A DNA stretch of 64,000 nucleotides, taken from IMG/VR virus record IMGVR_UViG_3300046522_000316, positions 128,001 through 192,000 of that record; one strand, written 5' to 3'. The stretch comes from a virus (lineage: Duplodnaviria; Caudoviricetes). The translations under genes and the position numbers were made by a program. The notes beneath the pieces are model-generated. The model was not told the DNA's origin and did no database searches. It saw only the letters and a program-made list of their open reading frames with translations. Each line of letters starts with the position of its first letter. Position 1 is the first letter of the stretch. This document shows, piece after piece, positions 1,981 through 28,881 of this stretch.

Positions 1981-2707
1981 TAAGCTCACACGCGGCGAAC
2001 ACATCGACATTGTTGCAGGCAACACCCGCATAGGAACCCATGACGTTTTTCCAACGAAAAATGTTTTCCTTGTCGAACATCGACCGGTGCCAAACGGAGT
2101 CTTCCGTGCTGACCCGACCATCCCGCCATGGCGTTATGCAGACGCACTTGCCATGGACGTTCCATACGATGCCCCGCGCACTCGCCACGAAAATATTCAC
2201 TACTACGAAGAAAAAGAATCTCCGCTCGCAATGAACGAGTTCGAGGTTCCTGACTCTGAATTAGTGGATTTCAATTCGGAAGCATCGCGGGAACTGGAAC
2301 GCTACAAAAAACTCTTTTATAAAAACGCCGCGTCTCTCAGTGCTTTGCACGATGCGGCGGAATATGTTGAGGCTGCTTTGAGTAGCGGCCTCGATATCGA
2401 ACTCGACATGGACTTGGCGTTGCTCAACGCCTTTGTCCCGCTGTCCCGGCTCGACGCAATCGCAACCATGGCGCGTTCCACTTCTTTGACCGGAACGCAG
2501 CAAGAATCCTACATCGAAAAAGTCACTGCATTCCTTGCTGAAAAAACTGTCCACGCTCTCGATAAATACGACGCGGGTGTGGCTGCACGCAAGGGATTCG
2601 AACATGCTAAGGAACTGTATGCACGCGTACTTACGAAAGAACAGCAAACTACGCAGAATGCCGATCATCCGCAAACGATGTGGGGCATCCGAGGTACACG
2701 CAAATAA
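1952..2707 (+). CDS. hypothetical protein upstream of terL (terminase small subunit is possible but unsupported)
   Basis: The ORF track gives 1748-2707, which overlaps dnaB heavily. ATG 1952 (or 1958) is the more plausible start. The stop overlaps the terL ATG. Confidence 0.7.
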   Translation: MTMGLPRSLDKLTRGEHIDIVAGNTRIGTHDVFPTKNVFLVEHRPVPNGVFRADPTIPPWRYADALAMDVPYDAPRTRHENIHYYEEKESPLAMNEFEVPDSELVDFNSEASRELERYKKLFYKNAASLSALHDAAEYVEAALSSGLDIELDMDLALLNAFVPLSRLDAIATMARSTSLTGTQQESYIEKVTAFLAEKTVHALDKYDAGVAARKGFEHAKELYARVLTKEQQTTQNADHPQTMWGIRGTRK

Positions 2708-6723: not shown

Positions 6724-7362
6724 ATGCCAATCCTAGCCGATGCACTGGTTGAGCCAATCAAAGAAGACGAAGGCCGTTATTTGCAGATGATTGCAGACGG
6801 CGACCTTGAAGAGTCCGAGCCATTTGGTTTTATGGGAATCGGATACAAACTTTACGTGGGCACTGATCGTTACGTTCCGGGCCTGTCGAACTGTCGGTTG
6901 GTCGTCCTGTTCAAAGGCGAAGATTGTGTTTATTCCTGCTATTTCAAAATGGCGGAAAACCAATACTTCGGAAATCGCGTGGTGCAGGTTGAGGTTCGGC
7001 AGTCTCCATCGTTGCCGGGCCTTGCGCGTTCCATGATGCGCAATTATTTCCTGCGTTTTTATGATTCGATTCGCACGGATCTTTCAAGCACACCGCAAGG
7101 CCGCAATATGTGGCAGCAGTTCTACACGGATTATCGGAAAGCCGGTGACGTGTATTTTTATCAAGGGTTGGTAAATATCGACCTGCGCAAATCGGACGGG
7201 TCGAATAATCAAGATGCATCCTGTCCAGAGGTGGTAACTCACTTGCGCGCCATGCGCAACGCCTGCACCGTACTGCGTGAAGGGATGTGGCACGACAATA
7301 AAGAGGGTAACGTTATTGTTATCTACGCATCCAACAAACCTCTATGGACAAAAGATCAATGA
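6724..7362 (+). CDS. hypothetical protein, possible divergent GNAT-like fold
   Basis: VVQVEVRQSPSLPGLARSMM...IRTDLSSTPQGRNMW resembles the phage GNAT-like pattern G.A..l....l.SD..qT..G..lW. Inference only. Confidence 0.55.
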   Translation: MPILADALVEPIKEDEGRYLQMIADGDLEESEPFGFMGIGYKLYVGTDRYVPGLSNCRLVVLFKGEDCVYSCYFKMAENQYFGNRVVQVEVRQSPSLPGLARSMMRNYFLRFYDSIRTDLSSTPQGRNMWQQFYTDYRKAGDVYFYQGLVNIDLRKSDGSNNQDASCPEVVTHLRAMRNACTVLREGMWHDNKEGNVIVIYASNKPLWTKDQ

Positions 7363-9299
7363 AACTACGAAAAACGAACCGGGTTCCAATCGGTCAAGCG
7401 CCAGCTAATCGCGCCCCGCAAGCGATGGGTACTGCAAAGCAGTATTACCCGAAAACCAATCAGCAAAAGATTGACGATTATCTGGCAACGGCAGGCAGCG
7501 GCGGCAACGCGCAAATGTCTCAGATGCCGATTGAAATCGACATTGATCCGATGCTGAAAGATATCGTGTTTTCCGAAGACCTTGAACAGAAAAAACTGGT
7601 CATGCGGATTTACACGGACATGTATTACAACGATTCCATCGGCGGTTCCATTGTCGATATCAAATCGCAGCTGATGTTCTCCGACTTCACCATTTCCGGA
7701 ATCATGGATCGCCGGGTGATGGATGATTTCATGGAAAACGTTGATCGTCTGGATATCCGCAACCTGATGCCCGACGTGGCAATCGACTACAACGTAAAAG
7801 GCGGTTTCATCGGATCGCTTTTGTACAACGAAAAATCGCAAGTGTTCTCGCGGATCATGCCGCACGCGTATGAAAACACAAAGATCGACATGCTGCCTTT
7901 CCACGGCACCGATCCGCTGATCACTGTAGCGTTTCCCGAATACATCCGGGCGACCATGGCTTCCGATAGTCCGCGTGTAAAAGCACTGCGTGAATTCCTC
8001 GGCGCCGACGTGATGAAACAGCTTTCGAACGAAGCGTTAGAACTCGACCAGAAATCCACCGTTTACGTTCCGCGCCGTTCCGGTTCCAGTTCAACGGGCA
8101 CCAGTTATTACCGTCGAATCATGCCGTGGTATTTGCTGGAGAAAAACCTTTTCCGTGGCACGTTGGTACGAAGTGCAATGCGTCAAAAGGGTATTCTGCA
8201 CGTAACGCTCGACGGCGCTGGCGAATGGGAACCAACACTGGCCGACATGCAGGCCGTGATGGATATGTTCATGAACGCCGATGCTGACCCGGTAGGCGCC
8301 GTGGTTGCAACGCGTGGCGGTATTTCCACTGAGGAAATTCGTGACCCACAAGGCGGTTGGACAATCTTCGATAACAAAGATGCAATCGACTCGATTAAAA
8401 TGAAAGCACTCGGTATTTCCGATGCATTCCTTTCGGGTGACGCGACTTATGCGAACGGCGATACTTCGACCTCTTTCTTTATCGACGCAATTCGTACCGA
8501 ACGTGATTGGCTGACCCGCAAGACTTTGTACAGCCGCATTTTCCCGATGATTTCCGCGTTGAAAGGCTACACGCTGAACCGCGACGGGAAATTGATTACT
8601 CGCGGTAACAGCCTCGACAAACTCGATCCAATGGGCAGTTTCGAACGACTCAACGACGGCACCCGTTTGTTGATTCCGACGATCCATTGGGAAAAGACTT
8701 TGCAGCCTGAAGGCGATCAGCAATACATGGATATGCTGCAAGCCATGTCGGATAAAGGCGTACCGGTTCCACTGCGCGTTATGGCGGCAGCTGGTGGCCT
8801 GAACCTTGACCGTTTGTTGGCCGGTCAGGATTCCGATTTGTTGGCGCAAGAATCGCTTTATCAATACCAAAAGAAAATCAAAGATTTGAAAAAGAAATAC
8901 GGTATTGATGACGCTGGCGATATGGGCGGCGGTGGCATGGGCGGTGGCGGTTTCGCTTCTACTGCATCCAGCTACGATCAGCAATTGATGCACATGGCCC
9001 GCACTAATCCCGGTTTGTTCGAAGCATTCCGCGCACAGGCACAATCCATTTATAACCAGAACCTCGACAATACGCATTCCGATGTATTGGCCCGCAACAA
9101 TGGTCAAATCGTTGGTTTGGCGAATCGCGAATTCGGTGAAATGGGCGATGCTTACGGCTATTCGCATGACGGCAAAAAGAAACATTTGACCAATCAAAAG
9201 TTGGCGAAAGAACGTCAGAACGAAAAGATCGTTAAATTCCTTCGGGATCGTGATGCTCGTACCGGCGTCGGTGCAAAGCGTTCGCGCACTCGTTTGTAA
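7359..9299 (+). CDS. portal protein
   Basis: 646-aa helical protein two genes after terL. ALGISDAFLSGDATYAN resembles the portal core. Start ATG 7359 overlaps the upstream TGA. Confidence 0.75.
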   Translation: MKLRKTNRVPIGQAPANRAPQAMGTAKQYYPKTNQQKIDDYLATAGSGGNAQMSQMPIEIDIDPMLKDIVFSEDLEQKKLVMRIYTDMYYNDSIGGSIVDIKSQLMFSDFTISGIMDRRVMDDFMENVDRLDIRNLMPDVAIDYNVKGGFIGSLLYNEKSQVFSRIMPHAYENTKIDMLPFHGTDPLITVAFPEYIRATMASDSPRVKALREFLGADVMKQLSNEALELDQKSTVYVPRRSGSSSTGTSYYRRIMPWYLLEKNLFRGTLVRSAMRQKGILHVTLDGAGEWEPTLADMQAVMDMFMNADADPVGAVVATRGGISTEEIRDPQGGWTIFDNKDAIDSIKMKALGISDAFLSGDATYANGDTSTSFFIDAIRTERDWLTRKTLYSRIFPMISALKGYTLNRDGKLITRGNSLDKLDPMGSFERLNDGTRLLIPTIHWEKTLQPEGDQQYMDMLQAMSDKGVPVPLRVMAAAGGLNLDRLLAGQDSDLLAQESLYQYQKKIKDLKKKYGIDDAGDMGGGGMGGGGFASTASSYDQQLMHMARTNPGLFEAFRAQAQSIYNQNLDNTHSDVLARNNGQIVGLANREFGEMGDAYGYSHDGKKKHLTNQKLAKERQNEKIVKFLRDRDARTGVGAKRSRTRL

Positions 9300-9320: not shown

Positions 9321-9334
9321 CTGTAAATAATGTA
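9321..9334 (+). promoter_or_regulatory. candidate phage promoter element CTGTAAATAATGTA
   Basis: An exact 14-bp copy occurs at 37051-37064 on the minus strand. Both copies are intergenic and upstream of a gene. The core resembles T4 late TATAAATA. Confidence 0.55.
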
Positions 9335-11265: not shown

Positions 11266-11444
11266 TGGCAAACGTTGAATACACGCGCACGTTTCTTTCT
11301 GGTGAATTGCTGGCAGGTAATCGCCGTTCCGATCCCCACGGCGTGCGTTGGATTAAAGAACCAATTCCTACACAACAAAAACACAAGATGACTCGACAGG
11401 TTGGGCGTTACCTTTCTGATGACCCATCAACCTATTTGAAATAA
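11265..11444 (+). CDS. small hypothetical protein (59 aa), absent from the ORF track
   Basis: ATG overlaps the upstream TAA (TAATG). Reads MANVEYTRTFLSGELLAGNRR...STYLK; the stop runs into a terminator. Confidence 0.65.
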   Translation: MANVEYTRTFLSGELLAGNRRSDPHGVRWIKEPIPTQQKHKMTRQVGRYLSDDPSTYLK

Positions 11445-11465
11445 CCCACTTAATCGTGGGTTTTT
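11443..11465 (+). terminator. intrinsic terminator
   Basis: AACCCAC-ttaatc-GTGGGTT followed by a T-run. Confidence 0.7.
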
Positions 11466-12630: not shown

Positions 12631-13078
12631 ATACGGCCCCAGCCCAATTTTTACGGTCGTTGCTTCGGAGATTCCTAACTCGGGCAAACGACCAGACACA
12701 CCGAAACCAGAAATAAACGAAGTGGGCGAATCGGCATGCGTTACCGGGCTTTCCAGTCTGGCACAGCGCCTGACGCAGGATATTCTTGTGGCCCATGAGC
12801 GCGTGCATTACGGATTTCCAATGCCGCAATTTCTTTTGCTCGCCCATGAATCGGAATTCGATCATCCAGACTTGGCGATTGCACAGCAGCTGCACCAATA
12901 TGTGGAATTTCGGGATATCACAATCGGTTATCCGCTGTCGATCAATGCGTATTTGTATATCACTGATCCAGCGGCTTACGGATTGCCACGCGGCTTAACT
13001 GAGGAAGAGGTTCTGAATAGTTTTCTTCGGAATTCTGTGCGGATTACCTACATCGTCAAGAATACGGATTTAAAATAA
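12620..13078 (+). CDS. hypothetical protein
   Basis: ATG 12620 chosen within the 12572-13078 ORF; its stop overlaps the next ATG. Confidence 0.65.
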   Translation: MGCEYGPSPIFTVVASEIPNSGKRPDTPKPEINEVGESACVTGLSSLAQRLTQDILVAHERVHYGFPMPQFLLLAHESEFDHPDLAIAQQLHQYVEFRDITIGYPLSINAYLYITDPAAYGLPRGLTEEEVLNSFLRNSVRITYIVKNTDLK

Positions 13079-14403
13079 TGGCAAACTATCGCTACATGGG
13101 TGAGCGTGACCTCGAATACACGGACGCCAGCGACGAATATGATCTGCATTTTGTGCAAGGTGATTTGTTCACCATGTACCGCCACGGGCAGGTCTACATC
13201 GTTCAGCATTCCGACGCACCTGAAGTTATTTTCAAACTGAAACTGAAGCAGGGCAATGACCTGCACAACATGAGCGAAGAGCTTTTGTCGGTCGAAACCG
13301 ATCCGGACAATCCGCCGTACATGTTGTTCAAACCGTCGTTCGAAATGATGCCGTTGCTTTACGATTATTTCAACCGCACTTATTTCAACAACGAATGCCC
13401 GGTTGTGAAATTCCGCAAGACTACGAAAAGCACTGTGTGGGGAATGGCGCAGCTGGAATGGCTCGGTAAAAAACCGGTTTACACGTTCTTCGTGAATGAA
13501 AGCGCAATGATCGACCGCGTGCTGTTCTCGAATACCGTTCTGCACGAACAGATTCACCTTCGTAACTTCGCGAAGGGTTACAAGTTGATGGACATTGATC
13601 CAAGTTCGTCGAAGGATTATTTGCACGATGACCACGGCCCCCATTTCCAAGACGAAATGCGCCGCCTGAATGCGAAAGGCTTCCACATTCTGCTGGCCGC
13701 AACACACGAAGAATTCAAACGTGATGCAACGGAAGAATTCTACGCAATTGTTGCGCAGGAAACAGCGGGCGCTCGCGTCATGTCATGGAACGCGTGGTAC
13801 ACGGCGAAAGAACTTACCGCCGATGACGCCGAACGTCTGGCCGGGCAGCTGAAGGAAATCAACCCGCATGCGGAATACACGATTAAACTGATCAAGACAA
13901 AAGATCGGAACGTGACGCACGCGACCCACATCAAAGGAACGAAAACGTTTACCGATTCGACTTTGAAAAAGAAAATCCAAGGCGATATCGACCTGCGCAT
14001 GGCCGAGGTTTTGTACACGACCTATTTGCGTCCGTCGATTGCTGTGGAATTGCCTGATTACAAAGACGTGCCGGATCTGTACGCGTTGCCGCTGGATAAC
14101 TTCTACAAATCCATGCGTAGCTACACCGATGACCGAATGGTGTTGCGCGCAAAATGGATGAAGTTTCCGGGCAAGCTTTTGAGTTCCCAAATCGACAAGA
14201 AGTTCAGCACCTTGATTGGTCGCATGGGCCGGGACTCAATCCACGATGACGACGTGGTGAACATCCTGAACGATATCCGCGCAGCGTATGCGGATCGTTT
14301 TTCGTACCAACAATATGTGGACGCCATGCATGCGTTCATCAAGAAATATGATCGCAAAGGCCTGCTTGCAGAGTACGCCAAAATTATGCGACTGATTGCG
14401 TGA
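13078..14403 (+). CDS. SprT-like zinc metalloprotease
   Basis: LYDYFNRTYF...WGMA...TVLHEQIHL (HExxH)...DHGPHFQDEMRRLN is the SprT/Wss1-type signature. Confidence 0.85.
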   Translation: MANYRYMGERDLEYTDASDEYDLHFVQGDLFTMYRHGQVYIVQHSDAPEVIFKLKLKQGNDLHNMSEELLSVETDPDNPPYMLFKPSFEMMPLLYDYFNRTYFNNECPVVKFRKTTKSTVWGMAQLEWLGKKPVYTFFVNESAMIDRVLFSNTVLHEQIHLRNFAKGYKLMDIDPSSSKDYLHDDHGPHFQDEMRRLNAKGFHILLAATHEEFKRDATEEFYAIVAQETAGARVMSWNAWYTAKELTADDAERLAGQLKEINPHAEYTIKLIKTKDRNVTHATHIKGTKTFTDSTLKKKIQGDIDLRMAEVLYTTYLRPSIAVELPDYKDVPDLYALPLDNFYKSMRSYTDDRMVLRAKWMKFPGKLLSSQIDKKFSTLIGRMGRDSIHDDDVVNILNDIRAAYADRFSYQQYVDAMHAFIKKYDRKGLLAEYAKIMRLIA

Positions 14404-14419
14404 CAAAAGGGGATTGACG

Positions 14420-14995
14420 GTGGCTTACACAAAGCGACGTAGAAGCAGCACGAAACAATCGCGTGCCAAAAAGGCATACGAAAAGAAAACAGCCCTTCCG
14501 GAAACAACAGTGAAAATGTCCCGCAGTGATATCACCAGCGCGCTTATGCAGGCGCTGACTTATTACTACGTGAAGAAAACCTGTTCGGTTCACAAAGAAG
14601 TGGGCGTGGTGCCATGGGGCCGGTCGCGACTTGATGCATTGGTTATCGACTATCCCGGCAATTTCCACGGGGTTGAAATCAAAAGCTGCTTGGCAGATTT
14701 CCGCGCTGATAAAAAATGGCGTGATTATTTGCCACACGTGAACAAGATGTATTTCTTGTTTGCACCGTCAATCACTCAATCGCGGTGCTATCCGGAAATT
14801 CGCGCAGAACTGAAAGCAGAGGGTGTGGGCATTCTGGTTCTGAGCGAAACCACCGGGCGTATTTCGTGCAGTCAGAAAGCGAAGCATCGGCCTGTCGCAA
14901 TCACTGCAAAATTTCGCATGTATCGCAAACTGGCTTGGCTCGCGGGTGACGCTAAGCACACCATTACCAGAACGCAGCGGGTGTTTTTGAAATGA
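14420..14995 (+). CDS. mmcB: MmcB-family PD-(D/E)xK nuclease
   Basis: RLDALVI...GVEIKSCLADFRADKKWRDYLPHVNKMYF matches the MmcB pattern EIKSS.ADF..D.KW..Y. GTG start at 14420 follows AAGGGGA; ATG 14396 is the alternative. Confidence 0.8.
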   Translation: MAYTKRRRSSTKQSRAKKAYEKKTALPETTVKMSRSDITSALMQALTYYYVKKTCSVHKEVGVVPWGRSRLDALVIDYPGNFHGVEIKSCLADFRADKKWRDYLPHVNKMYFLFAPSITQSRCYPEIRAELKAEGVGILVLSETTGRISCSQKAKHRPVAITAKFRMYRKLAWLAGDAKHTITRTQRVFLK

Positions 14996-15603
14996 TCGGG
15001 AAATTTATTGCACTGGAATCCATCGAAGCAGCCGGTAAAGGAACTGCCTCGATTTACGTTGGTGATCATGCAAAGAAACGCGGGTTGGAAATGATCTTTA
15101 CCCGTGAGCCGGGCGGCACTCCATTTGCTGAAGCGATCCGCACGCTAATGCTTGATAACGAAGGGAAAATTCCCGCGTTGTGTCAACCTTTCCTGTCGTA
15201 TGCTTCCCGCATTCAACATACCGAACATTTGATTCGTCCGGCGCTGGAACGTGGCGCGCACGTTTTCAGTGAACGTTATTACTGGTCAGCACTCGCTTAC
15301 CAAACGCGCACCTGTGATCAGACGTGGGCCATTCACGAAATGTGTTCGGAACATTTGATCAAACCTGATCTGACAATTCTGTTGGATCTGCCGCCAGAAG
15401 TCAGCTTCCAGCGTATGCACGAATCCCGCGTTGCAAAGGGAATCGCTCTCGATGAATTCGAGAAAAAACCTTTGTCTTATTTCGCTGAAGTGCGTGAGGC
15501 CTACCACAATCTGATTGATGATTCGTGGGTTGTGATCGACGCACAGCAACCCCTTGAAGAGGTGCAGCGCCAAGTATTGGCACTGATCGACCGAACGGTG
15601 TAA
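14992..15603 (+). CDS. tmk: thymidylate (dTMP) kinase
   Basis: FIALESIEAAGKGT P-loop, TREPGGTPFAEAIR, SERYYWSALAYQ, PDLTILLDLPPEV and IDAQQPLEEV. Confidence 0.92.
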   Translation: MIGKFIALESIEAAGKGTASIYVGDHAKKRGLEMIFTREPGGTPFAEAIRTLMLDNEGKIPALCQPFLSYASRIQHTEHLIRPALERGAHVFSERYYWSALAYQTRTCDQTWAIHEMCSEHLIKPDLTILLDLPPEVSFQRMHESRVAKGIALDEFEKKPLSYFAEVREAYHNLIDDSWVVIDAQQPLEEVQRQVLALIDRTV

Positions 15604-15605
15604 AA

Positions 15606-16031
15606 ATGAAAATGATGCTCGCATTAGCGGCCAGTGGTAAAAAGTATTTGTCGGGCGGGCTGATGATTCGGTTGGCCCGGAACTACCCGGATATTCGCGA
15701 CCTCGGTAATCGCCTGCTGCGTCTGCCCATTATCCCGCGTGGGAATTTCGTTCCCAAATTGCCTAAAGGTGATGACCACCTGATCAAGTTTGCAGAACAG
15801 AATAAGTTCTCGCTTTATTACGGTTATCGCGTGTACAAAAACGCAGAAGGCAAAGACCAAATGGAATCTTTGCTGATGTGCGTGGACGACAAGGGCCGCG
15901 TAGTTGAAACCGAAGAAAGCCGGTTGGATAACACGTCGAGTTATGTAGGAATGCGTATCCCGACTGACGATATCAAAAGCCGTCGCTACGCCAACAAATT
16001 CAACCGGATGGATTACCTAAAGGCCCAATGA
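15606..16031 (+). CDS. hypothetical protein with N-terminal tag (MKMMLALAAS)
   Basis: First member of the tagged gene run. Confidence 0.8.
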   Translation: MKMMLALAASGKKYLSGGLMIRLARNYPDIRDLGNRLLRLPIIPRGNFVPKLPKGDDHLIKFAEQNKFSLYYGYRVYKNAEGKDQMESLLMCVDDKGRVVETEESRLDNTSSYVGMRIPTDDIKSRRYANKFNRMDYLKAQ

Positions 16032-17713
16032 TGGAAATGACAATTGCAGCCTCAGTATCGCCGCCCGGTGCAGCGGATGCGTTCATTAAACTTTTGATCG
16101 CGATTTACAAGGCGCCCGAATTCGACTACGGTACGAATTTTCAAACGAAATTGAAGAAGTGGAACGAACAAGCGCAGCCGTTCCTTGAGCAGTACGCGAT
16201 CAAGCGCACCTTTGCCAAAACTTTGTCGATGTTGGTCAATGGCGAAGACGTATCGAACGAGAAATATTCGATCATCGTGAAGGGCTGTTTCGACTCCCTG
16301 AAAAAGAAAAAGAAATCGTTCGATAAAGACAAAGGTTTGTCCAAGCTGCAATTGAGTTTCCTGAATGACGTGCGTCTGGCCTACAACGGATCGTCGGGTG
16401 CGGGTAATCGCATCATGCAGAACGTTGGCTATTTCAAAGATTCGCATATCAGCAAAATGTTTTTGCACGAAGGCGAACACGTTGACACTTCGGTGCAGCA
16501 ATCGCTTTATGATCGCCTCGAAGAACACGTGAAAACTCACGGCAAAGTGAAGGGCCACGTGATGCCGAATACCACGCTTGAGAAATGGCGTGATAAGGCG
16601 AAAGAAGTGGGCGGCAACCTGACGGAACACCAAGACTATTTGGACATGCGCCGCCAGCGTAAAGCCATCGCAGATAAAGCGATTGCGAATATAGTTCGGG
16701 CATCCGGTGAACACATTGTGGACGTGGACGTAATCCGCGAACAAATGAACGGCGTGCAGCACGATATTCCTGATTGGTTCGTCGGCAAGATCGACGACAA
16801 AGGGAATTACTTCACCACTGACGGTTTGCAACTGCTGAATAAACCGATTGGTGAAGGTTCGATGAACCCGAATTACAAAGCGGGATCGACCGTTTACTAC
16901 TGCCAGTACAAAGCACCATTTGCTGCAAATCTTTCGAACGTCTACACGATTGCAGCCCGTACCGAAGGCCGCGTGCAGTCTTTTAACGTCGTGCAAAACA
17001 TGCTGCCCGATGTGACGAAGTATGTGAAAAAATGGTTGCCTGATTTGGCTAAGGGGCCGGGATCGTTGCGTGGTGTTGCTGCTGCCGTTTGTGAGACGAT
17101 TTACCAGACAAGTGCGCGCATCGGTTCGACCCGTGGCAACACAGCCGGGGAAACGACCTACGGCATTTCTACGCTGCTGCGCAAACACATTCTGTTCAAT
17201 GATCAACGTGCGATTTTCAAGTACATCGGCAAGAAAGGCGGTGCGCAGAAACACGTGATCAAATTCGAAGATCAGCGGACGCAAATGCTGCATGCTGCAC
17301 TTGACGAATTCCTGTACGAGAAAAAGCCAGCGGAATATGTTTTCACTTTCCGTGGCAAACCTCTATCGAACAGCCAAGTGAACGGCTACCTGCGTGACCT
17401 CGGATTTCCTGAAGGTTTCAGCATTCACAAATTCCGTAAGCTGCGCGGTACAGCGATGGCGAAATTGCTGATGGACAAATGCCCGTTTGGTGCCCGCGCC
17501 CGCGATGCTGACGTAAACAAATGGATCGAAACGCAGTGTTTGAAAATCGGTAAGGAACTCGGTCATTTGGCCGGGGAGAAAGTGACGGCCACCACGGCAA
17601 TCGCGAACTATATCGACCCTTCGGTATTCCTGCCGGTCTACGAAAAAACGAACACGCGTCCAAACTCCAAAATCCAAAAAGCGATTGACCTCGCTACGAA
17701 GAGTGCAGAATAA
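16028..17713 (+). CDS. DNA topoisomerase IB with N-terminal tag and long N-terminal extension
   Basis: Catalytic pentad in order: R (SARIG), K (YIGKKG), R (HKFRK), H (LGH), Y (ANYIDP). TYGISTLLRKHI matches poxviral/bacterial Topo IB. Confidence 0.9.
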   Translation: MMEMTIAASVSPPGAADAFIKLLIAIYKAPEFDYGTNFQTKLKKWNEQAQPFLEQYAIKRTFAKTLSMLVNGEDVSNEKYSIIVKGCFDSLKKKKKSFDKDKGLSKLQLSFLNDVRLAYNGSSGAGNRIMQNVGYFKDSHISKMFLHEGEHVDTSVQQSLYDRLEEHVKTHGKVKGHVMPNTTLEKWRDKAKEVGGNLTEHQDYLDMRRQRKAIADKAIANIVRASGEHIVDVDVIREQMNGVQHDIPDWFVGKIDDKGNYFTTDGLQLLNKPIGEGSMNPNYKAGSTVYYCQYKAPFAANLSNVYTIAARTEGRVQSFNVVQNMLPDVTKYVKKWLPDLAKGPGSLRGVAAAVCETIYQTSARIGSTRGNTAGETTYGISTLLRKHILFNDQRAIFKYIGKKGGAQKHVIKFEDQRTQMLHAALDEFLYEKKPAEYVFTFRGKPLSNSQVNGYLRDLGFPEGFSIHKFRKLRGTAMAKLLMDKCPFGARARDADVNKWIETQCLKIGKELGHLAGEKVTATTAIANYIDPSVFLPVYEKTNTRPNSKIQKAIDLATKSAE

Positions 17714-17715
17714 AT

Positions 17716-18000
17716 ATGGAAATGATGCTGGCAGTTGCCAACGAAAATCGCAACCCTGTTTCGGTAGACAAATTGCCGAAAGGTTCCAAGGTCACTCATT
17801 TTGTGCTGTATCACGAAGGCACTTTTAACATCTTGGGGCGTGGTCGTGCCGCTACCGCCAAACAGGCGACAAAACAAATGGATCGCCTTATGTCGCTGGG
17901 GATGAAAGCGGATCTTGCGCTTTACGCAGAAGACGGCGACCGCACGGTTTTGCTGCGCGAAACGTATATCCTGAAACGTACCGGCCCTGAGAAGGTTTAA
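17716..18000 (+). CDS. hypothetical tagged protein (MEMMLAVAN)
   Basis: 94-aa ORF carrying the tag. Confidence 0.8.
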   Translation: MEMMLAVANENRNPVSVDKLPKGSKVTHFVLYHEGTFNILGRGRAATAKQATKQMDRLMSLGMKADLALYAEDGDRTVLLRETYILKRTGPEKV

Positions 18001-18003
18001 CAA

Positions 18004-18375
18004 ATGGAATTGCTGATCGCTGTTGCGTCGAACAAAATCGACAAAGGGAATTTGATTCCCGCCGATACGAAAATCCAAGCGTATTCGATCCACGACAACC
18101 ATTCGGAAAAATATCTGAACGCTGGTTCGCATGCGCCGTGCAGTGCGGCCCAAGCGCTGAAGAAAATCAAAGAATTCACCAAACAATACGGCGGCGTCAC
18201 CGTGCTGTTCGACCTGCTGGAACCTAGCGGGCGTACCATCCGCGCCAAGCGTTCTTATTCGATGAATTATGGCGATTTGATTCAGCCGTATCGCGGTACG
18301 GAAACCATCCTGCAAGATGTTATGGCACCAACGCCGAAACCTACGAATCAGGCAAAGAAAGTTCGTCACATTTAA
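18004..18375 (+). CDS. hypothetical tagged protein (MELLIAVAS)
   Basis: 123-aa ORF carrying the tag. Confidence 0.8.
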   Translation: MELLIAVASNKIDKGNLIPADTKIQAYSIHDNHSEKYLNAGSHAPCSAAQALKKIKEFTKQYGGVTVLFDLLEPSGRTIRAKRSYSMNYGDLIQPYRGTETILQDVMAPTPKPTNQAKKVRHI

Positions 18376-18394
18376 TAAAAAGAGCGTGGGACAA

Positions 18395-18700
18395 ATGGAC
18401 GTATACGAAAGCGGTGTTTGTATTGGTCAGCGCGGCGAACAAGGCCCGGAAGGCCCACGCGGCCCCTGTGGCCCTACTTGCAAGGGGCCTGAGTGCGGCT
18501 GTGGCAGTGTGTGCGGGCCTATTGGTCAGCATGGCTTTCCGGGTGCAGATTGGAACGATGGAAAGGGAGGTGATCGTGGAATTCCCGGCCCCGACTACGG
18601 CGGCGATAACGCTGGCCCATCGAAGAAAGAAGCTCACGCTATGCCGTGGTATGTCGCACACGTAATGCGGCAAACGCGCCGTCAACAACGGGTGAATTAA
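18395..18700 (+). CDS. small Cys-rich collagen-like protein (untagged)
   Basis: [17 protein letters not shown]...CGPIGQHGFPG Gly-X-Y runs. Start ATG 18395. Confidence 0.65.
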   Translation: MDVYESGVCIGQRGEQGPEGPRGPCGPTCKGPECGCGSVCGPIGQHGFPGADWNDGKGGDRGIPGPDYGGDNAGPSKKEAHAMPWYVAHVMRQTRRQQRVN

Positions 18701-19129
18701 ATGGAAGTGAATATCGCATTAGGTGCGAGTCCGAATCAGGTTTATTTGTTCTTCGATAAACTGCGTCTGCGCGGATTCGAATTGAGTGAATCCAAATACG
18801 GGCACCCGAAAGCCATCCGCAAATATTACGACTTGTCCGGGCATTACAAATGTTCGGTAAATGTCGGCACCTACAAATTCGGTGAAGGTGCAGGCTGGTA
18901 CGAATACACAGTGTGGGTTGAATCTGCTGTGAAAGACGCAGTGACCGGCGAGCCTGTGGCAGCGGAAGAACTGAAAAACGGTTATTCGTTTACCACGCAG
19001 GACAACGAACGCATTACGCTTTTCACTTATTTCCTCGACTCGATTCTGACGCAGCCTGAATGCGTTGGCCTACCAACTCCGCTTGCCGTGGATGAAGTCC
19101 GCGAAGGCGAATATCGGATTAAATTTTAA
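18701..19129 (+). CDS. hypothetical tagged protein (MEVNIALGAS)
   Basis: 142-aa ORF carrying the tag. Confidence 0.8.
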   Translation: MEVNIALGASPNQVYLFFDKLRLRGFELSESKYGHPKAIRKYYDLSGHYKCSVNVGTYKFGEGAGWYEYTVWVESAVKDAVTGEPVAAEELKNGYSFTTQDNERITLFTYFLDSILTQPECVGLPTPLAVDEVREGEYRIKF

Positions 19130-19395
19130 TGGAAATTCAAATGGCTTTGGCCGCGAATAAAAAGCTGGTTCCAACCGGCACCACCATGGCAGGTTTCGAG
19201 ATTCAAAAAGACGGTAGCCCCATGATGACCATCGGCGGCAAATCCACTTGGCCGAGGATCGAAACGCAATTGGCACAGCACATTAAACTGGTCGGTGACG
19301 TGCATCTGGTGATCTGGATTCGCGACAAAAACGGCGACATGACCACGACCAAAACCCTTTACGGCCTCGACGGCGATCAAGTGGTGGAAAAATAA
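19129..19395 (+). CDS. hypothetical tagged protein (MEIQMALAAN)
   Basis: 88-aa ORF carrying the tag. Confidence 0.8.
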   Translation: MEIQMALAANKKLVPTGTTMAGFEIQKDGSPMMTIGGKSTWPRIETQLAQHIKLVGDVHLVIWIRDKNGDMTTTKTLYGLDGDQVVEK

Positions 19396-19827
19396 ATGAA
19401 AATGGAAATCGCAACCGCTGCTGAACCGACAATGCTGCCGAGCCGCTACGCCATTGGCGAGCCTGTGTTTTTTCACCCGGCAATTCACGACTTCACGCCG
19501 GAACAAATCCAGAAAAACGCACTGAAAGCCAAAATCATGGGCGTGCGTTTCACCAAAGAAAAAGTGCTGTACGAATTGGCGTTGGATACCGCACTTGATC
19601 CGGGGCCTGCCGAATATTACGAAGCAATTCCACTGGCTGACGTGGATTCGTATTTCGTGCTGAACGCAGCCGATGCAATGGACGGCGACCGTTTGCTGGC
19701 CGACGTTTCCTACATGGCGACTGGCTCCAGCAAAACCCGTACACCACAAGAAATCCGCAAGTTCGCTCAATTCTTTTTGGCGGTTGCGGCTGACCTTCCC
19801 GAACTGCGTAAAGAACAGGGCAAATAA
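19396..19827 (+). CDS. hypothetical tagged protein (MKMEIATAAE)
   Basis: 143-aa ORF carrying a tag variant. Confidence 0.8.
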   Translation: MKMEIATAAEPTMLPSRYAIGEPVFFHPAIHDFTPEQIQKNALKAKIMGVRFTKEKVLYELALDTALDPGPAEYYEAIPLADVDSYFVLNAADAMDGDRLLADVSYMATGSSKTRTPQEIRKFAQFFLAVAADLPELRKEQGK

Positions 19828-19829
19828 AA

Positions 19830-20219
19830 ATGGAAGTGATGATCGCCCTCGGGGCCTCAATTAAAGTCAGTGACCGGGGCGAACATTTCGGTAAAGAATT
19901 TCGTTCCGAACACGGTTACATCTGCGTGAAAACAGGCGGGCAATTCTCGCCATGCAAACACAGCGTAACCGATTACGTGGTTAACGAAGAATCACGCGGA
20001 CAGGGCCACGGTGATTTCCTGCTGAAGGGAATTGTGCGCACGTATAAATCGGATATCGGCGGGCAGGTTAGCAGCATTGCCAGCCTGCACGTGTTCTACA
20101 AAAACGGGTTCCGACCAGCACTCAAACTCGATGCAACTTTGGAAGAGACGAAAAAGCTTTTCAAAGATGAATGGGGTAGCCTGCTGATGGTTTATAAACC
20201 GGCGAAGGATTTCACTTAA
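19830..20219 (+). CDS. GNAT acetyltransferase, tagged (MEVMIALGAS)
   Basis: Motif A YVVNEESRGQGHGDFLL and motif B ASLHVFYKNGF. Confidence 0.8.
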   Translation: MEVMIALGASIKVSDRGEHFGKEFRSEHGYICVKTGGQFSPCKHSVTDYVVNEESRGQGHGDFLLKGIVRTYKSDIGGQVSSIASLHVFYKNGFRPALKLDATLEETKKLFKDEWGSLLMVYKPAKDFT

Positions 20220-21136
20220 TGGAAATGCAATTGGCGTTGGCCGGGAGTTCCGTACTCTATCATTTGATCCCGATGGAATACGCAATTGAAGCAATGCAAA
20301 AAGACCGCTTCCGGCTGATGCCAACCAACGAAGGCGTCGAGTCTGAATTCGGGGATGCTCAATATTTCCTGAGCCTTGCACGTTCGAAACTTTCCGATTA
20401 TTTCATCAAAGAAGCTGGCTCGACGCACGTCATTTTCGTGCTGGACGGCCAGAAGCTGAACGCGAATTACCAAATCAAAGCGGTCGATTATTGGGCGAGC
20501 CAAAAGCACGTTTCCAACGACGAAAAAGAAGACCGCCTGTTCGCAAACAAAATGTACATTCCGTGCATTCGATACATCAAAGAAATCCATTTCATGAAAG
20601 AAAGCGGCAAGTACAAGGAAAACGAATCGTTAACCTTGGCGCTGCTGGCAAAACGCAACAAGATCCAGCTGTTCCAGTACGACGATCAAAAGGCATTTGT
20701 GCGGCTTGATAAACGCAAGACAATCAAGCTGGAAGTTTCCAACATTAAGAAAAAGAAATTCGGTAAGAACGAATGGACGCCCGGCCCGGACTACACGCTA
20801 GAAGCGTGGTATGTCGCATCGCAAATCGTGTTCAAGGGTGACAAGCCGCATTACACGCAATTCATGGCCGGGGCCAAGCACAAAGAAGAACGCAAGGCCC
20901 GCGAACGTGTGGCCCGCGATATTCGAAACCTGATTAAATATCGGGATGTAGAAGCGGGGCCTGTGCGTGACTTCAATCAGTTGGCGGGGTTCCTCAAAGA
21001 TCCGCACGACGCCGAATTTCTGGAAAAGATCAAGCGTGTGAAACGTCGCCTGAAGACCGACACCAAAGGATTTCTTGATTACGTGCGCAAGCGCTGGATG
21101 ACTCAAGAAGAAAAAGAAATGCACGGCTTGGAGTAA
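20219..21136 (+). CDS. probable ADP-ribosyltransferase-fold protein, tagged (MEMQLALAGS)
   Basis: LYH, FLSLARS and EKEDRL appear in the order and spacing of the ART triad (H/R, SxS, ExE). Confidence 0.55.
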   Translation: MEMQLALAGSSVLYHLIPMEYAIEAMQKDRFRLMPTNEGVESEFGDAQYFLSLARSKLSDYFIKEAGSTHVIFVLDGQKLNANYQIKAVDYWASQKHVSNDEKEDRLFANKMYIPCIRYIKEIHFMKESGKYKENESLTLALLAKRNKIQLFQYDDQKAFVRLDKRKTIKLEVSNIKKKKFGKNEWTPGPDYTLEAWYVASQIVFKGDKPHYTQFMAGAKHKEERKARERVARDIRNLIKYRDVEAGPVRDFNQLAGFLKDPHDAEFLEKIKRVKRRLKTDTKGFLDYVRKRWMTQEEKEMHGLE

Positions 21137-21140
21137 ACGC

Positions 21141-22952
21141 ATGGAAATGCAATTGGCTGTGGCCGCAGTACGACTTAGTGTTGCGCGCCCATTCGTAAAG
21201 GGCTGGAATAAAAACGGAATCGGTGTGAAAGCCGTCCGTAAATTCCTGCCTAAAAATAGCAAAGGTTATCGGCTGTATATGCCGATCAAGAAAACGAAGG
21301 CCGACCGCGTAGTGGTGCCACATGCGGTGTTCCACGCAATCCACGAAGCCGGTTACAGCATCGAAGATTACATCAACGGAATCGCGGTGGCTCCGGACGG
21401 TAAACGTCGCGTGCGTATCGGCAAGATTTTGCGCGATGCAGAAGCCATTAAAGAATTCGCAAACGATCCGCAACGTTCGGCCCACAAAGACGAATACACC
21501 TGCGTGATTTCTGCGCATCCTTACGATGTGATCGGAATGTCTACCGGGCGCCGTTGGGATAAGACGACCTGCATGCGCTTAGCAACGCCTGAGAACAAAG
21601 GTGACGCAGGCGAGAAGGCCGTAGAATTCATGCCGGGCACCGTTGCGGAAGGCACGTTGGTTGCCTACGTGATCAGCCCCAAAGATAAAAACATCAACAA
21701 GCCTCACGCTCGCCTGTTGATCAAACCGTACAAGAAAGCCGACGATCAATCTTTCGTTTATTTCAAAGTCGAAACCGCTGTTTACGGCCAGCCTATTCCC
21801 GGTTTTAAACGCACTGTTGAAAACTGGTTGAAGCGTGTGAACAAAGGCGCGCAGGCCGGTATCTACAAGCTGCACAACAGCGTGCATATCGACGGCTCTG
21901 ATGATAAGCGCACGGCGATCATCGCGGATTACGAAACGATCAAAGATAAAGACAATTTCATTCTGAAAAATATGTACCCGGCTGGCGGGCCGAAAGTCTG
22001 GCTGACCGCCGACAAACGTTGGTTGCCCGACATGCTGCGCATCACCACCGACATTCACAATCTGGAAGAAATTCTGAATGCTGCGCGTGGCCTCAACATG
22101 GGCGCGAAAAAGATCGGTGCGATTTACGATCAGGTTATTCCTGCTGACGATCTGCGCAATTACGATCTGGCCGAATTCCTGATGGGCACGCATGCACAGG
22201 AATTGTTCGAAACCAGTAAACACCTTGGTGATGCTGCGCACGAACAATTCGCGTGGAACGAAGACGAAGAACCTACCAACGCCGGTCATGCAATGAAATA
22301 CGGCCTGTACGATTCGCGCTGGCTGGCGAACGTTGACGATATCAGCACCGACCTTTTGCGGCAGGCTGCGCAGAAGTTTATTTATGGCGCTTACCACTGG
22401 ACGAAAGAACTGCAAGATTCTCGGACGCCGGGCGCTGAAAAGATTCGTCTGTATTTCGCATTTGTTTCGCACGGACTTCTGGCCGACACTGGCTGGCTCA
22501 CTCCGCGTGTGAAAATCCAGAACCTGAAAGACTTCGTGAAGAAATCGAAAATTCCTGCCGGTTGGGATGAAAAGATTGTGGACATTGTGCGGTCGTTTGA
22601 CTGGCACCCGAATTTCCGCAACTCGACCTCGAATAATCTTCAGGGTGAAGCCTGCGTGCTGAATGCGGCGCCGGACTGGGCAGCTGTGTTCCCTGAATGG
22701 ATTCCCGAAGCGCGTAAATACCTGAGCGAAAAAGCGGTTGGTGTTCTGGCTAAAATGGCGAAGCACAACAAAGCAATTCGCGAACAGTTGGTCTACTGGG
22801 CCTACGCGCAAAACCGCGATGCACTTTCCAACGGATACCACTGGTTCACCACACGTAAAAACGTGCGTGATTTTATTCACCGCGTAGCTGAATCCAAAGG
22901 CGATGGCGAAGCCGAAGTATTCGCCCAACGCATTCTGTCCCTACAGAGTTAA
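21141..22952 (+). CDS. tagged paralogue 1 of the HPYD-GMST family (603 aa)
   Basis: Shares a ~250-aa N-terminal domain with the next two genes (VISAHPYDVIGMSTGRRWD..CMR, EGTLVAY, YGQPIPG). Confidence 0.85.
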   Translation: MEMQLAVAAVRLSVARPFVKGWNKNGIGVKAVRKFLPKNSKGYRLYMPIKKTKADRVVVPHAVFHAIHEAGYSIEDYINGIAVAPDGKRRVRIGKILRDAEAIKEFANDPQRSAHKDEYTCVISAHPYDVIGMSTGRRWDKTTCMRLATPENKGDAGEKAVEFMPGTVAEGTLVAYVISPKDKNINKPHARLLIKPYKKADDQSFVYFKVETAVYGQPIPGFKRTVENWLKRVNKGAQAGIYKLHNSVHIDGSDDKRTAIIADYETIKDKDNFILKNMYPAGGPKVWLTADKRWLPDMLRITTDIHNLEEILNAARGLNMGAKKIGAIYDQVIPADDLRNYDLAEFLMGTHAQELFETSKHLGDAAHEQFAWNEDEEPTNAGHAMKYGLYDSRWLANVDDISTDLLRQAAQKFIYGAYHWTKELQDSRTPGAEKIRLYFAFVSHGLLADTGWLTPRVKIQNLKDFVKKSKIPAGWDEKIVDIVRSFDWHPNFRNSTSNNLQGEACVLNAAPDWAAVFPEWIPEARKYLSEKAVGVLAKMAKHNKAIREQLVYWAYAQNRDALSNGYHWFTTRKNVRDFIHRVAESKGDGEAEVFAQRILSLQS

Positions 22953-22956
22953 ACAA

Positions 22957-25716
22957 ATGAAATTAGAAATGGCATTGGCCGCCGTGTCCATGAAAACGGC
23001 ACTGAAATATCGCCGCAATTGGGATCGCAATGCACCGATTGTGAAGCTGTTGCAATCCATGATGCCGTTCGGGCCGGGCAAGAAAGGGTATCGCCTGTAT
23101 TTCGATATCGGTGTGAACCATAAAGCGCACTTCACGGTTCCCCCGGCTGTGCGTTCGGCCCTGCAAAAAGCAGGCTATGCACCAACCGATTATCTGGCGA
23201 AGAAATGCGTCAAGATCGGTGACAAAGAACAGAAGAACGTTTTCAATATCGGCAAAGTAATTGCGAAAGATCCACACGCAAAAGCGGCGTTCGATAACGA
23301 TCCACAATTGCAGAACACCAAACAGGGTGCGTTGCAGGTCGTGATCAGCTGTCACCCGTATGACGTAATCGGTATGAGTACCGGGCGTGCGTGGGACAAA
23401 ATGTCGTGCATGCGCCTTGCTGATGGCGAACACCGTCTCGATCCCGGTTCGAACTCGCATTACGTGCGCAACGACGTTTCGGAAGGCACCTTGGTTGCCT
23501 ACGTTGTCGGCGCCGATGATTCGAATATTCAGCAACCGAAAGCACGCTGCTTGCTGAAGCCTTTCTACAACGAAAAAGGCGAAGTGCTTTATCGTCGTGA
23601 AACCCGCATTTACGGCAACCCGGTTCCCGGTTTCGATATTATTCTTTCGCGTTTTCTGCGTAAGATTAATGCGCACCTTCCGGAAGGCACGTTCCAAATG
23701 GCTAAGGGCCTTTACAACGACGGCATGGGCGATTACACGTACCACAAACCGAGCCATGACGATAACCTGTCGATTGAAGACGTGACGCTTGATCCTGCGC
23801 ACGCCGTGCAATACGTGCAGCAGCAAGTGAAAGCCATGGAAGATCATGCTTTCCGTGATGATCATATCGACAATATCATCACCTTCCTGAACAACGATGA
23901 AATTCAAAGTCGTTTGAAAGAAACGCAAATTGATGAAATCGTCGAAACCCTCAAAGGCGTGAAGGCCGCAGTTAACGGCATTCATTTGCTGGCCTACAAA
24001 GACCAGCCTTTGAGTACGGTGCTGGCCGAAGTCGGTCGCCGCATTGGTTCGTTCGAGAAAACGAAAGGCTTCACGAAAGAAATTCTGGCTGGTCTGGATG
24101 ACGACCGTGTTCACAACCTTTCGCACGGTGGGGGCAATCCCGTAATCGAAGCGCTTAGCCGCGTGGAAGATTTGAACGATTATGAACTGCGTGATAATTC
24201 CCGCATTTTCAAAATGATCCTCACTGGCAAAACTCCAGTGCCTTCGAAAGAAGAATTGGAAAACTTGCCGAATTGCGCACGCATTTTGAATACCGCTGCG
24301 CACGCTGCCCGCCACATGACGATGCTCAATGATGATTCGATGCAGAAAGGTGCATACGCAATTATCGACCTTGGAATTGATGTGGAAAACGCAATCTGGC
24401 TCGGCCCGGATGCAGCTGACATGATGTACGCAACTGGCGGCATTAATCTTTTCCTCGGTTATGTGATGGATAACGTCGGCAAACTGAGTTCGGATGCGTT
24501 GTGGGCCGCTGACCCTGCCGTAACCGCATTGGCGCTCGCGAATCGCCGGGTGTTCCGCTTCCTTGATAAACAGGAAGATCGCCAAATTGCATTCATGATG
24601 GATCATGTGAAAATGGAACAGGTTAAATATCTGATCCTGAATCCGAGTAAAGAACAACTTTTCAAAGACAACAAAGCGGCGCTCATTAAATACCTCGACG
24701 ATAACGAGGAAGTTATTCCGTCGATCCTCGGCAATGGTTGGGAACCGCAGTACGTGAAAAACTTGGCGAATCTCCATTTGCCAGCCGTAATGCATTTGAC
24801 CGAAAGCGATGGCATTTTCACTTCGGGACTAGCCGATACGATGCAGGGGATTATCCCGGCACTTATGGCATGGGACGGCCCGAAACTGGAACCGCTGACC
24901 ACCGATATCGAAAACGCATTGCAGATTATTGTGCAGGCCGGGAACCTTCTGGATAAACCGTTGCATTTGGAACGGAAAATCGACGAAGAACAATTCGAAA
25001 TTCGCGATATCACGGATGTTTCCGACAACTACGTGCAACGCGCTGGCGCCAATCGCTACACCCGCATTAAATCGTTCCCTGAATTGCTGTATAAACTGGA
25101 TTTCAACGGCGAACGTGCGGACATTACCCATTCGACCGAACTCATGGAACATTTGGGCGGCGATGCATTCGGTTGGGTTCCTACCGAGAAGCTTCCGGGC
25201 GAAGTTCGCGGCATGCTGAAACTGGTTCGTGAAATGGATTTAGATCCTGCAATTGATGCGCTCTACAGCCTGATCAACGCCACGCGTTTGCTTCCATTGG
25301 AAGAGGTGGATGCGGGCGTTGAACGACGCATGAATGATCGTGAAATTTTCATGCCCGACGATGACGTATTGGACGAAGACGCTTACGAAGAGGCGGATGC
25401 CGCCTACAATGAAATTCGTCAATCAATTGAAGATGAAATCATTGAGAACAATTACAAAACCCTTCGCCTCAATCGCAAGCTGTTGGAAGCGTTGGAAAAA
25501 GTGAAAGACTTCGTGGGCTACGACGAAGACGTTGATTATTTCGATGACGATGCACCACTCGCCACATTCGCCACCGATTTGACGAACGTTTCCGAAGACG
25601 ATTACGCTGACAATGAAGACCGCGTGCGTGATTTGCGGGCTGAGTTGAAAAGCGAATGCGAAAGCCGTCCGAACGAACAGCAGGAAATGGAAGACGACGC
25701 TGGTTTCAGCGAATAA
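22957..25716 (+). CDS. tagged paralogue 2 of the HPYD-GMST family (919 aa, acidic tail)
   Basis: Start ATG 22957 (MKLEMALAAV). VISCHPYDVIGMSTGRAWDKMSCMR, EGTLVAY, YGNPVPG. Confidence 0.85.
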   Translation: MKLEMALAAVSMKTALKYRRNWDRNAPIVKLLQSMMPFGPGKKGYRLYFDIGVNHKAHFTVPPAVRSALQKAGYAPTDYLAKKCVKIGDKEQKNVFNIGKVIAKDPHAKAAFDNDPQLQNTKQGALQVVISCHPYDVIGMSTGRAWDKMSCMRLADGEHRLDPGSNSHYVRNDVSEGTLVAYVVGADDSNIQQPKARCLLKPFYNEKGEVLYRRETRIYGNPVPGFDIILSRFLRKINAHLPEGTFQMAKGLYNDGMGDYTYHKPSHDDNLSIEDVTLDPAHAVQYVQQQVKAMEDHAFRDDHIDNIITFLNNDEIQSRLKETQIDEIVETLKGVKAAVNGIHLLAYKDQPLSTVLAEVGRRIGSFEKTKGFTKEILAGLDDDRVHNLSHGGGNPVIEALSRVEDLNDYELRDNSRIFKMILTGKTPVPSKEELENLPNCARILNTAAHAARHMTMLNDDSMQKGAYAIIDLGIDVENAIWLGPDAADMMYATGGINLFLGYVMDNVGKLSSDALWAADPAVTALALANRRVFRFLDKQEDRQIAFMMDHVKMEQVKYLILNPSKEQLFKDNKAALIKYLDDNEEVIPSILGNGWEPQYVKNLANLHLPAVMHLTESDGIFTSGLADTMQGIIPALMAWDGPKLEPLTTDIENALQIIVQAGNLLDKPLHLERKIDEEQFEIRDITDVSDNYVQRAGANRYTRIKSFPELLYKLDFNGERADITHSTELMEHLGGDAFGWVPTEKLPGEVRGMLKLVREMDLDPAIDALYSLINATRLLPLEEVDAGVERRMNDREIFMPDDDVLDEDAYEEADAAYNEIRQSIEDEIIENNYKTLRLNRKLLEALEKVKDFVGYDEDVDYFDDDAPLATFATDLTNVSEDDYADNEDRVRDLRAELKSECESRPNEQQEMEDDAGFSE

Positions 25717-25741
25717 AAACAGTAATTTTATAGTATGTTAC

Positions 25742-25777
25742 GCCGGGAAGGTTTAGGCTGACCCGGCTTTCTTTTTT
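25742..25777 (+). terminator. possible terminator between paralogues 2 and 3
   Basis: GCCGGG-N14-CCCGGC followed by TTTCTTTTTT. Confidence 0.55.
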
Positions 25778-25791
25778 ATGGATCAAAAAAC

Positions 25792-28455: not shown

Positions 28456-28881
28456 ATGGAACTTTTTATTGCACTAGCTGCCGAGGATGTGAGCGCACGG
28501 ATTTCTGACGGTGTGCGTTCCATTCTGAAAAAGTCGTACAGTTCGTTGTTTGCCAATGTGTTCGTGCGGGTTTTCGATATTGATGATCGGCACAAATCTG
28601 ATATCAAAATCGTTCGTGAAATGGCGAAAGAATTTGCACCGGTTTGGGTTACTGTCGAGAACGCACAGCACGATATCGTGACGTTTGTTTTCGCGGTGCC
28701 TACGCTGGCGCCTGTGCTGCACATTCCGAATCCGCCGCTGGCCTACGTGATCCACAACGAAAAAGTCGAGCAATTCAAACTCGAACCACGCGTTGTACAG
28801 GTTCGCGGTGCTGACTACGCAATCGCTGCTGCTGTCGCACGCCGGGCACCGAACTTTATCGAAATTGGAGTGAGCAAATAA
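28456..28881 (+). CDS. hypothetical tagged protein (MELFIALAAE)
   Basis: 141-aa ORF carrying the tag. Confidence 0.8.
   Translation: MELFIALAAEDVSARISDGVRSILKKSYSSLFANVFVRVFDIDDRHKSDIKIVREMAKEFAPVWVTVENAQHDIVTFVFAVPTLAPVLHIPNPPLAYVIHNEKVEQFKLEPRVVQVRGADYAIAAAVARRAPNFIEIGVSK

Follow-up and report, generated by a model that had tools for sequence, protein, structure and literature searches.

The window analysed here, 64,000 nucleotides of the tailed-phage record IMGVR_UViG_3300046522_000316 in IMG/VR (positions 128,001 to 192,000), belongs to a jumbo phage whose relatives include the Pseudomonas phages Lu11 and HRDY3. One of its genes encodes a type IB topoisomerase (Topo IB) of a family known in jumbo phages. 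The enzyme starts with a short peptide, called the tag below, which it shares with a block of neighbouring genes, and behind the tag lies a helical domain specific to the family. The tag is real and modular, and it acts at the peptide level. It suggests, without proving, that the topoisomerase is packed in the phage head and injected together with the DNA, a reading to which we give an even chance. We know of no study of the role of Topo IB in phages.

The gene and its catalytic codons are placed as follows (window coordinates, all on the plus strand):

16028-17713, plus: complete Topo IB gene, 561 amino acids plus stop, as one open reading frame (ORF)
17117-17119, plus: codon of R364, the first catalytic Arg, aligned to D. 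radiodurans R137
17231-17233, plus: codon of K402, the catalytic Lys, within GKKG
17426-17437, plus: H467-K-F-R470, the second catalytic Arg with the invariant His that precedes it
17564-17566, plus: codon of H513, the catalytic His, within LGH
17609-17611, plus: codon of Y528, the nucleophile Tyr, within ANYIDP

The initial annotation had read this ORF as a Topo IB with a complete R-K-R-H-Y pentad, and both the ORF and the assignment are borne out by Pfam, PDB profiles, fold scores and conservation. PF01028 (Topoisom_I) matches with 46 bits (E 5e-12), above its curated cut-off of 23.7, which the orthologues in Lu11, HRDY3 and PaBG likewise exceed. A profile of 20 homologues matches, among PDB entries, the Topo IB of Deinococcus radiodurans (2f4q, E 1.7e-13), an archaeal Topo IB (6z01, E 2e-12) and the variola enzyme (2h7f, E 1.6e-5). 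The two-domain clamp fold, an N-terminal beta domain followed by a C-terminal catalytic domain, is present in the AlphaFold2 (AF2) model of the full protein (predicted local distance difference test score, pLDDT, 83.8). Fold alignment of this model with VIA gives Z 19.5 for human Topo I (root-mean-square deviation 3.5 Å over 282 residues), 17.5 for bacterial 3m4a and 16.9 for variola 2h7f.

The pentad R364, K402, R470, H513 and Y528 is invariant in the alignment of the 20 homologues, whose identity ranges from 26 to 93%. The Topo IB of D. radiodurans (2f4q/3m4a) is the best sequence match among solved structures, and its catalytic positions align one to one: R364, K402, R470 and H513 pair with R137, K174, R239 and N280 in the residue alignment to 2f4q, and Y528 with the Tyr region. 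It differs in its length of 346 amino acids, in having no extra N-terminal domain, and in carrying Asn at phage H513 and Lys at phage H467. The phage enzyme looks catalytically competent.

The invariant H467, three residues ahead of R470, creates a recombinase-like HxxR and completes an R-K-H-R-H-Y hexad; in the aligned Topo IB chains from bacteria and archaea, Lys takes this position (KxxR). Together with a match to PF00589 (Phage_integrase) of 25.7 bits (E 1.2e-5), under the cut-off of 27.1, and with the alignment of Xer and Cre catalytic domains at Z 11-13, the hexad could be taken to indicate a site-specific tyrosine recombinase or resolvase working on phage concatemers or genome ends instead of a relaxing topoisomerase. 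We consider this very unlikely. Topo IB scores far higher on both measures (46 against 25.7 bits; Z 17-19.5, where recombinases reach 13 at most), the N-terminal part corresponds in the fold alignment to the Topo IB-specific beta domain and not to a recombinase-type core-binding domain, and the NYIDP tyrosine motif matches archaeal Topo IB. PaBG is, in addition, reported to be circularly permuted and so to have no special ends (PMC7412058).

The protein is laid out in four parts:

16028-16063, plus: N-terminal tag and linker, residues 1-12, MMEMTIAASVSP; disordered in the model, tag conserved in orthologues
16064-16711, plus: family-specific all-alpha N-domain, residues 13-228, 11 helices, pI 9.4 (AF2)
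16712-16945, plus: canonical Topo IB N-terminal beta domain, residues 229-306 (strands in the model, fold alignment)
16946-17710, plus: Topo IB catalytic domain, residues 307-561 (PF01028, PDB profile matches, VIA Z 17-19.5)

An N-terminal region of about 300 amino acids without a recognised motif had been described initially. The description holds for residues 13-228, which have no Pfam or PDB match, but residues 229-306 are the canonical beta domain. Structure prediction and a fold search of the whole region, suggested at the time as a check, gave an eleven-helix domain with no PDB fold match and a beta domain that matched Topo IB. The AF2 model consists of a disordered start (residues 1-10, pLDDT 32), eleven helices (15-226), beta strands (230-305) and the catalytic part (308-557). 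Topo I structures align to it from about residue 229 or 260 on, and the beta domain is therefore the ordinary N-terminal domain of Topo IB; it was aligned with human Topo I from about residue 333 and with the variola enzyme from residue 37. The true addition is thus residues 13-228, about 215 amino acids.

Modelled alone, this N-domain reaches a pLDDT of 81, and it has no match in Pfam. A Foldseek search of PDB gave no convincing match (best E 1.4). Among 48,161 chains compared with VIA-align the highest Z was 6.3; this alignment covers solely a helical hairpin at 147-230 and is within the noise for helical models, and no fold was assigned. With phmmer, 26 matches were obtained among 1.8 billion representative proteins, essentially all of them proteins of 540-600 amino acids from the same family, and no short relatives lacking the Topo IB domains were found among proteins of 30-307 amino acids. 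PF02919, the DNA-binding fragment of eukaryotic Topo I, came up as a lead from the ESM Atlas with a score of 0.87-0.89, under the trust level; it was not adopted, as hmmscan gave no match in 21 N-domains at E values up to 10 and the Topo I structures left residues 13-228 unaligned.

The same domain heads ORF108 of phiRSL1 (hhalign probability 98%, E 2e-13) and the topoisomerase of Motura (98.9%, E 2e-17), two proteins that tblastn aligned only from residue 185-200 on. Both have the N-domain and neither has a tag, so the helical domain belongs to the enzyme and not to the tag, and the enzyme with its extension predates the tag and is independent of it. The most likely function of the domain would be the binding of DNA or of a partner. 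Whatever the tag does, a helical domain confined to this family adds a new accessory module to a minimal Topo IB.

Topo IB is uncommon in tailed phages, as had been supposed: 21 of 50,697 phage records match the protein, all of them from genomes of 190-314 kb. The match to phrog_23460 is full-length (E 8e-259, residues 6-559), and most alignments to the 30 homologues found span 89-100% of the query. Lu11_0197, HRDY3 XDJ15083, PaBG gp84, phiRSL1 ORF108 and the Motura protein share the architecture of helical N-domain, beta domain and catalytic domain in 541-562 amino acids; the window protein is 78-81% identical to those of Lu11 and HRDY3 (about 78% at the DNA level to both) and 39% identical to that of PaBG. 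The window phage differs from phiRSL1 and Motura in that these two have neither an N-terminal tag nor tagged neighbours. The family itself is annotated in GenBank, as 'topoisomerase IB' in phiRSL1, 'putative topoisomerase I' in Lu11, 'DNA topoisomerase I' in PaBG and 'topoisomerase' in Motura. The GenBank annotations examined mention neither the N-domain nor the tag, and no paper on them came up in literature searches. Neither a conserved helical module at the N-terminus of the enzyme nor a tag that co-varies across lineages appears to have been described. It has been proposed that bacterial Topo IB derives from an undiscovered group of viral enzymes (PMC2647321), and a lineage of viral Topo IB in bacteria bears on that proposal regardless of the tag.

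The tag has the consensus M-E/K-h-x-L/I-A-h-A/G. The topoisomerase start, M(M)EMTIAAS, fits the shared 9-mer, in agreement with the initial annotation; read from a second in-frame ATG, at 16031, the protein has the consensus start MEM. Position 8 is S instead of A/G, and the strictest DNA pattern consequently misses this gene. That degenerate pattern, M-[EK]-h-x-h-A-x-[AG], has 11 sites in the window against 0.04 expected, all of them plus-strand gene starts between 15606 and 28456, and it is clustered in the same way in Lu11 (eight of nine sites) and HRDY3 (eight of nine). Across 17 loci, a relaxed peptide expression that includes the topoisomerase picks out 41 of 542 gene starts, as against 5 of 2656 Met positions in gene interiors. 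The tagged set in the window comprises about 13 genes in one block, of which two parts flank the topoisomerase:

15606-16031, plus: upstream tagged gene (p141), 141 amino acids, start MKMMLALAAS; translationally coupled to the topoisomerase and syntenic with PaBG gp86
17716-28881, plus: downstream run of tagged genes with 11 more tagged starts, the context of the tag

Within the block the genes are packed with spacers of 0-4 nucleotides or with overlapping stops and starts (the ATG of the topoisomerase and the TGA that ends the upstream gene share the four letters ATGA), a clear Shine-Dalgarno sequence is mostly missing, and codon 2 is nearly always GAA or AAA. Such features would be expected if the shared N-terminus were a feature of the nucleic acid or of translation initiation in closely coupled genes and not a protein signal, in which case it would be silent on the destination of the proteins. 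Codon usage makes this highly improbable, the least probable of the explanations considered. Tag positions 5-9 are conserved as amino acids while each is encoded by four to nine different codons: four at the invariant Ala 6, six at position 5 and nine at position 7. The residue type also shifts coordinately, from A to S, between lineages, and the equally tight neighbours encoding SprT-like, MmcB-like and dTMP kinase (Tmk) proteins have no tag. Even taken jointly, a recombinase and an initiation feature have a small probability.

The shift between lineages is followed by the topoisomerase:

Window phage: neighbour tags MEMxLALA; topoisomerase N-terminus MEMTIAAS
Lu11: neighbour tags MKIQLAVA; topoisomerase N-terminus MNVHIAVAA
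Loci L029, L032, L033, L034 and L041: neighbour tags M-K-I-L-I-S-L-S; topoisomerase N-termini MIISISAVS, MLVSLS, MLISLSRVN
PaBG: neighbour tags less clear; topoisomerase N-terminus MHTSLSAVQ

The tag is of the LALA/IAVA type in the Lu11 clade and of the ISLS type in distant lineages, and the N-terminus of the topoisomerase changes likewise; an exception is L018, with an S-type tag on the topoisomerase and A-type neighbours. The peptide behaves as a separate module. Beyond its disorder in the AF2 model, the linker after it varies in length, with indels directly behind the tag. In the SprT-like protein of the window, which is untagged, the KMPT-N domain begins with residue 1; in the paralogues of Lu11 and L034, which are tagged, it begins at residue 13-14 (genes at window 13078-14403; Lu11 JQ768459 48427-49704, which is L071:15428-16705, minus strand; and L034:3857-5497). 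The type IIA topoisomerase of the phage (elsewhere in the genome), DnaB, terminase and portal are untagged. In tagged SprT-like proteases the tag shifts the KMPT-N domain by exactly 12-13 residues. PaBG gp89 (MELAIASD) and L023:6925 (MSISLSAAD) also look tagged. A Sec or lipoprotein signal peptide was considered and rejected on inspection: the hydrophobic run is only 5-6 residues long, a lipobox Cys is missing, and the cargo consists of DNA enzymes.

The most likely role of the tag would be that of a capsid-targeting or propeptide signal like the capsid-targeting sequence (CTS) of T4. Internal proteins of T4 are diverse, yet carry a short conserved N-terminal CTS (PMC3012670). The CTS of T4 IPI-III and Alt and the phage tag are both short N-terminal peptides on diverse, fast-evolving, clustered proteins and enzymes (PMC3012670); they have no sequence similarity. 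The scheme we propose is as follows. A predicted active type IB enzyme would serve as an ATP-independent swivel through a 3'-phosphotyrosyl intermediate at Y528. Its family, which is specific to jumbo phages, places a basic all-helical domain (13-228) before the usual two Topo IB domains, and in the Lu11/PaBG lineage the enzyme has in addition gained an N-terminal peptide of 9-12 residues common to neighbouring enzymes and hypervariable proteins. A few copies would be incorporated in the prohead and reach the cell along with the genome of about 300 kb, where they could relieve torsional stress during entry and first transcription. From these features we infer enzyme activity, head targeting, injection and a role after entry. 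In its fuller form the proposal is that phages of the Lu11/PaBG type would load and inject Topo IB by means of a beta-strand-like tag of 9-12 residues, in some lineages along with a SprT-like protease, an ADP-ribosyltransferase-like enzyme and a GNAT; we hold this tentatively, at slightly less than an even chance.

Pre-loading and injection had been put forward in the initial annotation, and the evidence is divided. In favour are an enzyme that looks competent and a modular tag, acting as a peptide, on a block of diverse enzymes and hypervariable proteins, while the type IIA topoisomerase has none. The tagged block is for the most part not conserved in PaBG and therefore resembles hypervariable cargo. 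The gene directly downstream of Topo IB in PaBG encodes gp83 (KF147891 54998-55960, minus strand), a very basic, Lys/Arg-rich protein with a tag-like N-terminus, MLIKINLLEAVAAKA, that resembles the extended tags MKINLLESSSA (L032) and MKINLNIRSESA (L041). It is an abundant virion protein (PMC7412058, Table 1). No gp83 homologue, which would link the tagged genes to the PaBG virion proteome by orthology, was found in Lu11, the window or related loci, and literature searches found no virion proteome of Lu11 and no paper on HRDY3.

Several observations weigh against head loading or do not bear it out. PaBG gp84, the Topo IB, is not among the 14 virion proteins visible by Coomassie staining, an insensitive method (PMC7412058, Table 1). 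Pfam gave no match to an S78 or S77 prohead protease in Lu11, HRDY3 or PaBG, although the S77 search was blank in control genomes too and so is uninformative. No cleavage motif could be defined in the tag; three tags end in A-x-E and most do not. The tagged Lu11_0077 adjoins a DNA ligase gene, not head genes, and the Lu11 orthologue of the PaBG virion protein gp202 has no start-proximal tag; the census of PaBG N-termini, made with a crude regular expression, was uninformative. The untagged orthologues of phiRSL1 and Motura sit among metabolic genes, which suggests an ancestral intracellular role, and the SprT-like, MmcB-like and dTMP-kinase genes that keep their place near the topoisomerase point to a part in DNA metabolism.

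These last points would also fit an enzyme that never enters the head. It would be a purely intracellular swivel for replication and transcription of a very large genome, with the SprT-like protease and MmcB-like nuclease clearing trapped topoisomerase-DNA adducts and the tag serving, for example, timed turnover, recruitment to the phage factory or assembly with partners. We regard this as a substantial possibility, but short of probable. It gains from the order SprT-like, MmcB-like, Tmk, p141 and Topo IB, which is syntenic between the window and PaBG, where the topoisomerases are only 39% identical; from MmcB-like or SprT-like genes close to Topo IB in L028, L029 and L034 (MmcB-like near it in all three); and from the metabolic neighbourhood of the untagged phiRSL1 orthologue and the place of Topo IB outside the abundant PaBG virion proteins. 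Yet the phage already encodes an untagged type IIA topoisomerase elsewhere in its genome, and the tag is found on very diverse, fast-turnover genes absent from PaBG, as in a cargo set rather than a replication complex. SprT-like paralogues, moreover, are tagged in several lineages, so that the synteny fits co-delivery equally well.

Poxvirus Topo IB is packaged in the virion and aids early transcription. The vaccinia and variola enzyme (314 amino acids, PDB 2h7f/3igc) matches the fold of the phage enzyme over both Topo IB domains (model residues 272-560 to chain residues 37-314), and the R-K-R-H-Y pentad is common to both. It is only 12-16% identical to the phage enzyme and has no helical N-domain; packaging is known for the poxvirus enzyme and is as yet a proposal for that of the phage. 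If the tag is a head-loading signal, the phage enzyme would be a counterpart of the poxvirus virion topoisomerase reached by convergence, and the first case of a topoisomerase delivered by the virion of a bacterial virus. Head loading would point to a need for managing the topology of a genome of about 300 kb at entry, and would make available, beyond T4, a simple portable tag with which foreign proteins could be packaged in the heads of jumbo phages.

For the head-module genes of Lu11, Pfam and PHROGs give just 'virion structural protein' and 'ATPase'. In the major capsid proteins (MCPs) of Lu11 (JQ768459 37456-38550, minus strand) and PaBG (gp80), residues 29-38 or so read L-A-L-S-S-[SA]-T-G-E in both, like the tag core LALA[AG]S. 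This part of the MCP is N-terminal and presumably removed on maturation. In both it could serve as a recognition element for a scaffold or protease, or the resemblance could be accidental. Just upstream of the genes for a structural protein and the MCP lies Lu11_0067 (JQ768459 39347-41251, minus strand), the equivalent of PaBG gp82, a protein of 633-643 amino acids whose annotation reads 'ATPase' or 'ribosomal-like'. Part of it is acidic and of low complexity, and it might be a scaffold or a protease. Immediately upstream of it is Lu11_0068, a tagged protein of 120 amino acids.

In the window, Lu11 and HRDY3 the gene order is common, running from baseplate-like genes through those for the SprT-like, MmcB-like and dTMP kinase proteins to the topoisomerase. 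The further features of the window are:

13078-15603, plus: genes for KMPT-N/SprT-like metalloprotease (HEQIH), MmcB-like nuclease and dTMP kinase, the conserved upstream neighbours (Pfam; synteny in Lu11, HRDY3 and PaBG)
2680-5607: large terminase
7344-9299: portal

The phage promoter motif CTGTAAATA occurs in exact copies solely at 9321 (plus) and 37064 (minus), and neither copy immediately precedes the tagged block. At 11443-11462 (plus), directly after a gene of 59 amino acids that ends at 11444, stands a strong terminator-like hairpin (AACCCAC...GTGGGTT, then a T-run), which may mark the end of a transcription unit starting at the motif at 9321. Within the tagged block a small untagged ORF (18317-18700, plus) encodes collagen-like G-x-y repeats and is conserved in Lu11 (Lu11_0199) and HRDY3.

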